Of a stretch of 64,000 nucleotides of DNA, positions 24,001 through 27,000 are shown in pieces. Position numbers: made by a program. Source of the DNA: a virus; IMG/VR virus record IMGVR_UViG_3300044510_000078; one strand, given 5' to 3'. Each line of letters begins with the position of its first letter. The stretch's first letter is position 1.

Positions 24001-27000
24001 CCAAACCTTTTGCAGTAATGGCGCGACCAGAAGTTGTGATTTCCAGAAGTCCCATCTTTTGTAGATATAATTCCACGTCTTTCTGCAAGGCTTCTTTGGT
24101 CATTCCAATACTTGCGCTGAGACGAGTAAGGCTCGTTTCCTTGCGCGTGGCAAGCAAACGAAGAACCTGCAATTCGATATTCGACAAGCCTAGCGGCAGA
24201 ATTCCCAACGTGCGACGGAGAGAAATCCAATCAACCTTATCAAAGGTCGTTTTCTTTTGGCCGCATAGATAGGTTTCAATGTTGCTGCTCTTTTTCTGCG
24301 CCTCACGCGCATTACCACGACAGGCCGTAGCGATTTCATTCAAGAGTTTAGCCTCGATTGGAGTCTTGATGTTGCGTTTAATCATCTCTGCCAAGTGAGA
24401 AGTGTTATATTCTTCAAGCTCAACTCGGTCAAGCCTGTCCATCAGCGCATGAAACACCTTATGAGATTCAGAAGTAGCGAGGATAAAATTTTGACGCTTA
24501 AAGTCGAAATCCACCGTATAATCATCATAACTAAAACTCGTCCTGTTCGTGTTATTCGGATTTAGAATCGTCAGCAACGCCATCGTCACATCACGCGGAA
24601 TTTCAGACGCCTCATCGAAAATAAGAGTGCAATCTTTGTCATTGACAAACGGAATGATAATTTGGTTGAAGAATTGCTTCACACTTTTGACGGTCGAGCA
24701 ATTGATTTCATACCAACGCTTTTGTTCGCCGCGAGTTCCGGCGATGTTCTTCATCTGTTTAGCAAGCTCACGCGCAATCATTGTTTTACCGCAGCCCTTC
24801 GGCGCGATAAGCAATGAGTGAGGCATAATGCCGCCGTTGCGGTAAGCGTCCAAGAGAAAGTTTAGCTTGGACTTAACTCGGTCTTGACCGACGATGGATT
24901 CAAAAGGAATTTCCGGTGTCGTTACTGTCGGGGTTGTTGCTGTCATGTTACAAATACTATACCAGAGCCTTGCGGGAAAGTCAACTGATTTAAGTCACCT
25001 AATTAAAAAACAATTAAATCAATTAAAATAAAACTCTACCTGATAACTCCCCTTATCAAGTTTGTTGACGCTGAAGCAACACGCGACTGGCAAATCCTTT
25101 AACGCTTTTGCGGAAACAGATTGAGCGGCGCGTTTTGCATTGGAGTAAGAAGAATAATTACGGCTCTTAAACCACTTATTTATTTCGTTTTTGATATGGG
25201 TAGGAATCAACATAAGAACAAAAAAGCAGCAAGGGGAAACCCTGCTGCTGTGATTGATTGGTTTTAGCTTACTCGCCAGTAACAACGCCGACAGGAGCTT
25301 CGACCGCTGGTGCGGGAGTTGCCGCGACCACAGCGACAACCTGCTTGTCGTCTGCTGCGCCTTCCTTCACTTCGACGTTGGCCTCAATGGTGGCTCGCTT
25401 CAAAGTGACCATTGCGGGAGCAGTCTTCCCGACAAGACCGATACCGTCCGCCCACTTTTTGCTTACGACAACGGAAGCTGTTGCGTTGACCTTCTCCGTA
25501 AGTTCAGCAAGCGTCACTACGACGAAACTGAAGCTACCCTTTTTACGACCGCGATTTTCTGCTTTGTTCATATTTGATTTTTGTTGTTTAACTTGATACC
25601 AGTTTAAGGCTTTTTTGTGAATTAGTCAACATTTTTTTCTGAAAAAAAGAGGGCCATCTTTGGATGCTTCTCGAAAGTTTCAGAGTTATTCATGTAAGAT
25701 TCAAGCCTGTCGCGCACTTCTGTTAGGTCGCTGGCGTCCATTATTTCGGCGATGTGGTCGTATATTTCGCCGTCAGACAGGGCGATTCTAGCCGCTTCAA
25801 AAATCTCAAGTAGTTGTTCGTCAGTGAATGGGTGTTTCATTTTTATTTAAAATGACCAAGTTTTTATCCAAATGGCGACAGATATAACAAGGGCAACTAT
25901 ACACATCCACGTTTCGCCAGTTGTCGCCAATATCCAACCGCCGAAAACAACCGCGACAGCGAATATAGTAAGAAGAATACGATTCCACTTGATATACCGA
26001 ATAGTAGAATTCAATAATGCTCTAATATGTTTATTCAACGTCTGTAACAGTTAAAGTTTCAACCCAAGTTTCCCCACAGTTTTCACATGAAACCACCCTA
26101 CCAAGAGGTTCATTGTAGTCAAATTCTTCGCTCGTTATATCGGCCCCCTTACAGTAGGGGCAATGATTGGGGTCTTTAATGTATTTGGATTTTTGGGCTT
26201 TTGTTAGCATATTATTTGAATTTTAGCGCAACAAGATTTGAACTTGTAAAAACTTAAAAGTATTCTGACAATCCGGCATCAGAAACTACCAAGTGTTTCG
26301 TTGGTTACGACTTCGCAGCGTCTCTCCGATTCCGCCATGCGCTAATTTTATTTTACGAAAACTTTTTTCCCGTGTCAAGATATTTACTCATCAATCCAAA
26401 CACAACAGCCAATCCAAAAAACCATTTAGCAACACTATATTTGGCAGCCAACAAAGTCGTAGCCCCCAACATATTGAAGAAAACAGAAATCGGCCCAGCT
26501 AAAGCAAACAATACAAACATCCCAACACTTATTAAAAAATATAAAATAATCCACCCAAAAATACAAGCCCCTTTAAAGGACTCGATGGAACTCGTCTTGT
26601 AGGTCTTCATTAGATAATCGAATCTGACTCGGCTAAGTTTATCACATCTTTGATGAACTTTTTAACGTCGGGATGAATATGTTCCTGCCCCTTATTTCTT
26701 ATAATTAAGGCTTGCATTTGCTCATTCATTTGAGAATATATCTTTTGCCACGCGGCCTCGTATCTTTTAGCCATATCATTATTTAGAACTTTTGTTGCTA
26801 TATTTGAAGATTTCAGCATAAAATTTGGGCTTATTTGCTTAAAACTCTGATAAGTATGAATCCTAAAATAGCCACAAATACAACCAAAGCCCATGCCGAG
26901 CGAGGGTCTTGGGGCCAAAAAGAAAAATAATAATTGTTAATTTGATTCATGGACTTCGGACGATTGCTCCAATGTCTAAATACAGGAAAAATAAGAAAAA

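Follow-up and report, generated by a model that had tools for sequence, protein, structure and literature searches.

We describe E1, a 121-nt element shaped like a transfer RNA (tRNA), read directly from the minus strand (26344..26224) of a 64,000-nt viral sequence, IMG/VR record IMGVR_UViG_3300044510_000078. This whole stretch, hereafter the window, is part of a large phage genome. E1 is, with high confidence, a real and separately promoted RNA that does not decode, and it is a member of a large and widespread phage RNA family that is absent from Rfam 15. An original prediction from the sequence of the window had proposed a tRNA mimic that keeps the acceptor and elbow and cannot decode, and this view is now strengthened by a large family, by covariation and by the absence of anticodon stem-loops. 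The fuller statement, in which this non-decoding family member is a tRNA-shaped scaffold carrying lineage-specific cargo and possibly leucylated, is more tentative, and we regard it as very nearly an even call.

The element, its promoter and the open reading frame (ORF) that follows it are laid out as follows.

26350..26378, minus strand: sigma-70-type promoter TTGACA-17-TAAAAT from a promoter scan, 11/12 consensus matches
26224..26344, minus strand: E1 RNA, a class-II, tRNA-Leu-type shell without an anticodon arm
26338..26344, minus strand: acceptor 5' strand UAGCGCA, 7/7 pairs with 26224-26230
26337-26336, minus strand: U8 and G9, directly before the D arm
26318..26335, minus strand: Leu-type D arm GCGGAAUCGGAGAGACGC, with a 3-bp stem, A14, A15, G18 and G19
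26306..26317, minus strand: hairpin 1, UGCG-AAGU-CGUA, a stub of 4 bp capped by a 4-nt loop, standing where a tRNA has its anticodon arm
26288..26305, minus strand: hairpin 2 as originally predicted, ACCAA-CGAAACAC-UUGGU; in the alternative fold its 5' part is a single-stranded linker and ACUUGG lies in a long arm
26263..26284, minus strand: hairpin 3, UUCUGAU-GCCGGAUU-GUCAGAA, a 7-bp stem capped by an 8-nt loop; it forms the outer end of the extra arm, extendable to about 26294..26252
26248, minus strand: U, equivalent to position 48, directly before the T arm
26231..26247, minus strand: T arm ACAAG-UUCAAAU-CUUGU, with 5/5 pairs in the T stem
26223..26230, minus strand: acceptor 3' strand UGCGCUA and discriminator A73 at 26223
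26031..26210, minus strand: Cys-rich ORF of 59 amino acids, beginning 13 nt past E1, with a weak, sub-threshold match to a Lar-like zinc ribbon

The perfect 7-bp acceptor, U8-G9, Leu-type D arm and canonical T arm of the original prediction were all found again on direct reading of the minus strand. Measured against a canonical tRNA, E1 has the 7-bp acceptor, the D arm and the T-psi-C-type T arm, each of them perfect; acceptor and T arm form a perfect 12-bp coaxial stack, and all tertiary positions are present, including U8, A14, A15 with U48, and A73. Its D arm differs from that of Escherichia coli tRNA-Leu mainly by one additional loop base. The centre between the D and T arms, at 70 nt, compares with about 32–34 nt in tRNA-Leu. 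The bases right after the discriminator are AAU, so CCA is not encoded; on this point, and on the lack of an anticodon loop in the folds, the earlier description holds.

It had also assigned E1 a dedicated promoter with its +1 at or near the first base, and this agrees with the near-consensus promoter found here. The -10 box stops 5 nt ahead of the first RNA base, and a start about 5–8 nt past the box would land on the first bases of E1. Promoter and terminator scanning detected no terminator 3' of E1, including the interval before the 59-amino-acid ORF, which on this arrangement is probably co-transcribed with E1 unless the 3' end of the RNA is cut. A second TAAAAT (26210-26250, minus strand) is formed by the 3' acceptor strand of E1 and the next bases, 9 nt ahead of the ATG of this ORF, with only a weak -35 located within the T arm; the 59-amino-acid gene might thus own a weak promoter embedded in the E1 gene.

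Standard annotation does not recover E1. ARAGORN in bacterial mode made no call there, as had been expected, and its only call in the window was tRNA-Met at 16394-16466. Rfam 15 returned no match at E1, even at E≤10 on a 351-nt slice, and the family match that the original prediction had named among its own refutations is thus lacking; for the tRNA family RF00005 there was no match either at the gathering threshold (29 bits) or at E≤10. A 5-bp/7-nt anticodon stem-loop with U33 and a purine at position 37 is absent from E1 in either fold of its centre. These folds come from an energy and ensemble computation on a single core sequence, with the shell held fixed. Of the three hairpins originally proposed, the first and third stand (pair probabilities of 0.7–0.8 and 0.83–1.0, reaching about 0.8 and 1.0), and hairpin 3 also occurs in the unconstrained minimum-free-energy structure. 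Hairpin 2 is the less probable fold, with a pair probability of only about 0.08; it is disfavoured because ACUUGG pairs instead with UUUAAGU (probability about 0.9), which lengthens hairpin 3 into one long irregular arm in the class-II variable-arm position. The stub-plus-long-arm fold reaches -30.6 kcal/mol against -28.5 for the three-hairpin fold, a gap of 2.1 kcal/mol. In this model two of the hairpins appear robust, and the middle one would compete with the extension of hairpin 3.

Three scans of IMG/VR placed E1 in its family. The first, with the D-arm string TGGCGGAATNGGANAGACGC, found 52 loci and 38 distinct elements; nearly all matches have a perfect T arm 28–131 nt further on, and then a 3' strand that complements the 7 nt immediately preceding the match, and the discriminator was A in 33 of the 38 elements, where this position was free. 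The second used the commonest 3' shell, AGGTTCGANTCCTGTCCTGACTA, and gave at least 120 loci with at least 151 further distinct elements; among the matches listed, up to six elements occur per locus, interleaved with ordinary tRNAs whose shells are all different. A third pattern, fitted to the T arm and acceptor of E1 itself, uncovered a sister clade, GAGCGCG-UG-GCGGAAUGUAAAGACGC ... GCAGGUUCAAAUCCUGC-CGCGCUC-A, comprising 49 distinct elements, usually one per 30–60 kb contig. E1 (UAGCGCA/UGCGCUA) is nearest to this GAGCGCG clade among the collected elements; the same holds for three elements found in the phages most closely related to that of the window (L063). Altogether, the scans collected at least 251 distinct shell elements.

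Within this constant shell, the cores are diverse. They range from about 10 to 185 nt, and the shortest collected elements measure about 61–87 nt. The largest group of alignable cores among the matches listed has five members, which implies well over 150 unrelated cores, and the 70-nt core of E1 matches no other collected core. No dominant k-mer is shared across cores, and an 'ACGAAA' core loop motif noticed by eye proved not to be general. The first hairpin is most commonly a short stub with a 3–6-nt loop. Rfam 15 detected nothing in the long cores (no group I intron) or in the sister clade. Some cores have T-arm-like hairpins nested inside them, for example CCCG-UUCGAGU-CGGG and GAG-UUCGAUU-CUC (L005:9369-9496, L046:1480-1620 and L054:6944-7080). 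Full-text literature searches, whose coverage was limited and does not prove absence, found no published description of such a family.

The shell behaves as a conserved RNA structure. In an alignment of 29 sequences, 98.4% of shell cells were paired, compared with about 36% when the 3' partners were slid, figures that are somewhat inflated as the script took the best-pairing T arm and acceptor for each match. Double changes occur at 12 of 15 shell pairs, with both-side changes at 7/7 acceptor pairs and 4/5 T-stem pairs; for the D arm, the search pattern itself had dictated the sequence. Alignment A1 shows no variation at the U that precedes the T stem. A covariance model, R2, built from 24 IMG/VR elements only and containing no sequence of the window phage, scored E1 at 64.6 bits (E about 4e-17), which, given this independence, puts E1 far beyond chance; a further covariance model, R1, gave 71.1 bits. 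E2, a second shell RNA of the window described below, scored 57.4 bits with R1 and 42.5 bits with R2, and elements of the relatives of the window phage scored 38–50 bits under R2. The best-scoring true tRNA under R2 was T4 tRNA-Leu at 32.4 bits, with other true tRNAs at 12–27 bits. Across two sets anchored on the 3' shell only, U8 was kept in 96–100% of elements, A14 in 84–87%, R15 in 92–98% and U48 in 79–85%. The D-loop GG is present in 91% of the AGUCAGG clade versus 23% of the sister clade (11/47). Most GAGCGCG-clade members (L183-L240) have the D loop AAUGUAAAGA, which lacks GG, and retain a normal T loop; at L060:5684-5787 (plus strand), a 5-nt loop replaces the T loop and the D loop also lacks GG, a correlated loss of elbow elements.

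Decoding is what the family has lost. Only 1 of 165 first hairpins has an anticodon-like 7-nt loop, and this is a genuine-looking tRNA-Lys that shares the shell. Canonical 5-bp/7-nt stem-loops with U33 and R37 occur anywhere in 2 of 167 cores, against 3.1 expected from shuffles; since anticodon stem-loops are no commoner than chance, we conclude that the family cannot decode. Applied to the family, bacterial-mode ARAGORN either misses the elements or gives them arbitrary labels (Gln, Arg, Pro, Gly or '???').

Shell and core travel together. Loci that share a core are 86–100% identical over shell and core, and their 300-nt flanks align at only about 6–40% (L015/L021, core 97%, flanks 31–35%; L195/L229, core 86%, flanks 27–32%; L185/L226, core 97%, flanks 6–29%). 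Identity that persists between unrelated flanks marks shell plus core as one unit, either selected or horizontally moving. Inside the cores of a five-member class we found a compensatory C-G to U-A change, and the cores of L195 and L229 differ by a compensatory swap of GCAC/GUGC to GUGC/GCAC. Recurring neighbours of the shell RNAs are terminase, DUF932, GIY-YIG endonuclease and methylase genes. ORFs resembling GIY-YIG/NUMOD3 homing endonucleases lie near shell RNAs or tRNA arrays in 15 of 170 loci (L082 and 14 others); they recall SegB, the GIY-YIG homing endonuclease annotated in the T4 tRNA cluster, and by this analogy such enzymes could contribute to the mobility of the modules.

Known systems share parts of this architecture. 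In transfer-messenger RNA (tmRNA), the tRNA-like domain is an acceptor/T-arm shell around a large non-tRNA insert, and in the engineered tRNA scaffold the anticodon arm gives way to an insert, a design that lends the RNA the processing and the protection of a tRNA. E1 differs from tmRNA in keeping a full D arm, in having G3-C70 rather than G3-U70 at 3:70 and in lacking a tag ORF and the set of pseudoknots; ARAGORN made no tmRNA call for E1, and RF00023, at the E-value threshold, matched the window only in a T-arm fragment at 6709-6726. With tRNA-Leu (RF00005), E1 shares the 7-bp acceptor, U8, a 3-bp D stem with an AAU(N)GG..AGA loop, A15/U48, a 5-bp T stem with a UUCRANU loop, and A73. It differs in having no 5-bp/7-nt anticodon stem-loop and no RF00005 or ARAGORN call, and we do not file it as a tRNA because it fails both the defining anticodon feature and the Rfam threshold. 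Many members of the AGUCAGG clade do score above the gathering threshold of the Rfam tRNA model, at 35–45 bits.

Among phage RNAs, the T4 stable RNAs C and D (species 1 and 2 RNA; rnaC and rnaD) are likewise small, stable and encoded beside tRNA genes, and have had no known function after decades (PMC3014915, PMC9697503). RNA C, too, encloses an expanded centre with a canonical T arm and a stem that resembles an acceptor, but it lacks a Leu-type D arm, its acceptor has two U-U mismatches, and it scores 18–19 bits across the family models (18.3 bits under R2) against 64–71 bits for E1; RNA D has no T arm. YrlA and other bacterial Y RNAs, which also occur in phages, are non-decoding mimics of the D arm, T arm and acceptor that are recognised by tRNA enzymes. 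YrlA is effectively a circular permutation that ends in a Ro-binding stem and has a loop-closed 'acceptor'; its motif is GNCGAAN0-1G, and it is encoded on the same strand as Ro60, no more than about 4 kb away (PMC4201824). The topology of E1 is the opposite, its ends being the acceptor stem; it has only near-misses to the motif (UGCGAAG, AACGAAAC), has no Rfam match and lies 18 kb from the DUF2828 gene of the window phage, and it does not qualify as a YrlA RNA. The nearest published description is that of the oversized tRNAs with 'enigmatic introns' of Lak megaphages (Devoto et al. 2019, PMC6784885). These, too, are phage tRNA-shaped genes with conserved inserts that are too long for bacterial tRNA finders, but Lak copies with and without the insert align with each other, and removing the insert leaves a canonical tRNA, which is not so for E1 or for most of the family.

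We propose that transcription begins at or beside the first base of E1 and that the acceptor/T minihelix, the D arm, U8-A14, A15-U48 and the contacts of G18G19 with the T loop would build a tRNA elbow. RNase P, 3'-trimming enzymes, the CCA-adding enzyme, TruB and TrmA all recognise their substrates by the acceptor/T minihelix and elbow. Host tRNA enzymes would then trim the 3' end of E1, add CCA and modify its loops, and recognition by RNase P, the CCA-adding enzyme and EF-Tu, which the original prediction had put forward, is plausible from the preserved shell. The processed RNA would be as stable as a tRNA, its shell serving as a natural tRNA scaffold for lineage-specific cargo. In E1, this cargo would be the 4-bp stub and the long irregular arm, or two hairpins, presented to a putative protein, RNA or small-molecule partner. 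Scaffold-for-cargo as the working principle is a possibility we favour with reserve, at somewhat short of an even call.

The elbow and acceptor bear on aminoacylation as well. For the leucyl-tRNA synthetase (LeuRS) of E. coli, A73, A15-U48, G18G19 and the T-loop pairs suffice as identity elements, and tRNA-Leu truncated of its anticodon and variable arms is still charged (review PMC9976931). E1 has all of the E. coli leucine identity elements (A73, A15-U48, G18G19, and U54/U55/C56/A58 of the T loop). It may therefore be leucylated, since all identity elements are present and none lies in the anticodon or variable arm.

Some observations weigh against our reading of the family as conserved cargo-bearing scaffolds. 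The core of E1 has no homologue in the data we could reach, so that both its fold and the case for selection on it rest on one sequence; E1 also occurs on six other contigs, but all of these represent the same phage, almost unchanged (0–2 differences over 4.6–5.7 kb aligned), and are for that reason uninformative. The 86–100% identity of the modules could mean recent horizontal transfer rather than purifying selection, and the pairing statistics carry the inflation noted above. We found no conserved neighbouring gene or partner, with no protein family in more than 17 of 170 or more than 5 of about 58 loci, and a search of the window for sites antisense to the E1 or E2 core gave nothing above shuffled controls. 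The sister clade mostly lacks G18G19, and L060 lacks the T loop too; the intact elbow is not family-wide, and leucylation cannot be a family-wide property for the same reason.

Other explanations were weighed against the scaffold. E1 could be a leucine-charged RNA that works outside decoding, either by supplying the aminoacyl group to a non-ribosomal transferase (of the L/F-transferase, Fem or cyclodipeptide-synthase type) or by titrating LeuRS or EF-Tu; any core would do, provided that it did not form an anticodon arm. The presence in E1 of the E. coli leucine identity set (A73, A14, A15 with U48, G18G19 and a standard T loop), the dispensability of the anticodon and variable arms for charging (PMC9976931) and the frequent discriminator A (33/38) all fit this idea, but we consider it unlikely: the window proteins scanned include no aminoacyl-tRNA-dependent transferase, G18G19 is missing from most of the clade nearest to E1, a charging role would have no need of cores so diverse, structured and conserved, and the rules of E. 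coli LeuRS may not be those of the host. It is similarly improbable that the shell is a decoy or sponge that titrates a host factor binding the acceptor, T arm or elbow, such as a toxin that modifies tRNA ends or a processing enzyme, and so spares the real tRNAs. In its favour, phages that are otherwise unrelated share a strikingly constant shell sequence, some phages have several copies per genome, and genes for RNA repair or modification occur in the window phage (RlaP, a SpoU methylase, a macro domain) and in its relatives (a T4-type RNA ligase 1 at L060). The best-known tRNA-directed defences, however, cut anticodon loops, and E1, having none, offers anticodon nucleases nothing to cut. A stoichiometric decoy is inefficient against a catalytic enzyme, a pure shell decoy predicts neither diverse cores nor cores conserved along with the shell, and neighbour analysis of the loci found no defence or counter-defence gene consistently adjacent. 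Between the two functions suggested in the original prediction, decoy and scaffold RNA, the latter appears to fit the data better, in view of the constant shell, the hypervariable cores that are conserved within a type, and the retention of shell and core together in unrelated contexts. A cis-acting role, in which E1 is a leader or processing signal of the mRNA of the 59-amino-acid gene and its tRNA shape invites cleavage by RNase P or an RNase Z-type enzyme, or else makes the transcript more stable, and so fixes the 5' end of the mRNA or its amount, would suit the 13-nt gap without an intervening terminator, the way in which E2 likewise leads straight into the next promoter and gene, and the many family members inside polycistronic tRNA arrays. 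We give it a low probability, as members occur in very different contexts with no common downstream gene, shell and core move as a unit independent of their flanks, and a processing signal requires neither a Leu-type D arm nor conserved cargo.

An ordinary tRNA with an intron-like insert removed after transcription, as in Lak megaphages, is a reading that the original prediction had named among its own refutations, and oversized phage tRNAs have been read as intron-bearing in the literature (PMC6784885). With introns allowed, ARAGORN fits 116 of 204 elements, but the anticodons are scattered over most amino acids. Leu accounts for about 21 of these 116 solutions, against about 11 expected by chance. 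At L049:989-1113 (minus strand), removal of a 41-nt insert bounded by CGGA direct repeats leaves a convincing tRNA-Leu(UAA) with a perfect 5-bp anticodon stem and a CUUAAAA loop; the locus might be a genuine tRNA with an insert, or might capture the way in which the family arises. L049 and the excess of Leu make it likely, as far as sequence comparison goes, that the family arose from tRNA-Leu and that true insert-bearing tRNAs occur occasionally. For E1, the only intron-allowed solution is Arg(UCU), a poor fit with a mismatched anticodon stem, a distorted D arm and the strongest hairpin destroyed; E2 has no solution even with introns allowed. We rejected an intron-bearing, Lak-type tRNA as the identity of E1, as removal of the insert leaves no canonical cloverleaf. 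The shortest members (about 61–87 nt) are too small to hold an intron plus an anticodon arm, the long cores have no group I intron or other Rfam match, and we know of no bacterial mechanism for splicing such short inserts, all of which makes the intron explanation very improbable. A decaying tRNA-Leu pseudogene with no function of its own has the least to recommend it and is highly improbable. Imperfect members exist, among them E2 with 5/7 acceptor pairs and L060 without the T loop and D-loop GG, but E1 has its perfect 12-bp stack, lacks none of the tertiary positions and is served by a near-consensus promoter of its own, covariation of the shell helices extends over hundreds of elements, and decay would not spare the shell yet replace only the decoding arm in at least 251 independent cases.

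The window phage carries further elements of this type.

9425..9530, minus strand: E2, a second shell RNA with the same D arm type, T arm GCGGG-UUCAAAU-CCUGC and 5/7 acceptor pairs

The E2 core is an unrelated sequence of 54 nt with GAAA-type loops. E2 has its own upstream promoter-like site, and its 3' side leads straight into the promoter of the next cassette. A third tRNA-like element at 6699-6795 (minus strand) has GUCGGGU/AUCCGAC acceptor-like pairing, a GCG..CGC D-like arm and a perfect T arm, GCGGG-UUCAAAU-CCCGC, at 6709-6725, with three additional bases between T stem and acceptor. Only its T arm was detected by Rfam (as a tmRNA fragment) and by the family models.

Relatives of the phage and of the shell were sought in several ways. 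Megablast and blastn of the E1 locus against GenBank phages gave no useful match, and IMG/VR searches through the clamp-loader-like AAA protein and rIIA found no relatives. Two more distant relatives (L060-L064) have other shell RNAs and no homologue of the E1 core. Among bacterial genomes, the 3' shell of the sister clade occurs in no host tRNA-Leu; it was found only in unrelated tRNA-Val or tRNA-Lys genes and in three short contigs of metagenome-assembled genomes with a phage-type element. No cultured phage with the AGUCAGG clade was found in a search that in part used a query from unverified coordinates. The strain variants L054 and L055 are 99.97–100% identical to the window (0–2 differences) as far as 22043 and diverge beyond it, where both have an array of about eight or nine tRNA genes with another shell RNA (in L054 at 5736-7807, the shell RNA at 6944-7080) and the window has other genes, including a DUF932 ORF; on sequence, this looks like a cassette-level swap. 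The composition of the window shifts at about 24000, from a guanine-plus-cytosine fraction of about 0.50 (1-24000) to 0.34–0.42 (24000-64000).

Genes of the window include rIIA, a PF26926 rIIB-family protein and a clamp-loader-like AAA protein. Between 33051 and 48872 on the minus strand lies a cluster of RNA- and nucleotide-handling genes, whose products may be candidate partners of the phage small RNAs.

33051-34175, minus strand: ATP-dependent ligase
34420-34890, minus strand: dual-specificity-phosphatase-like protein (weak match)
36626-37738, minus strand: RlaP nucleotidyltransferase
37787-38761, minus strand: IMPDH/GMP-reductase
43030-43542, minus strand: SpoU-type 2'-O-methyltransferase, not assignable to TrmH, TrmL or RlmB
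44539-46059, minus strand: DUF2828/DUF7788 protein
47027-47500, minus strand: macro domain
47685-48872, minus strand: AAA ATPase

The usual view of phage tRNA genes is that they help with codon usage or provide backups against anticodon nucleases. In this family, hundreds of independent elements have dispensed with the decoding part and kept the features read by processing and charging enzymes. As tRNA finders miss such elements, as with E1, or assign them arbitrary anticodons, phage tRNA inventories and codon-recoding inferences are contaminated. If these RNAs are natural tRNA scaffolds, phages would have a large hidden repertoire of small RNAs, which would account for oddities such as T4 RNA C and would supply evolution-tested scaffolds for RNA expression in bacteria; if some are charged, this would be a new non-ribosomal use of aminoacyl-tRNA by viruses. 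More speculatively, and in our view rather unlikely in its full extent, the tRNA body may be a general phage platform, a universal, self-processing and nuclease-proof vehicle in which hundreds of different structured small RNAs ride as aptamers, decoys or regulators, with modules exchanged as units and some members, including E1, leucylated. Were this so, the leucylated members would be linked to the host aminoacylation machinery, and a major unrecognised class of phage non-coding RNA would be hidden among 'odd tRNAs'.

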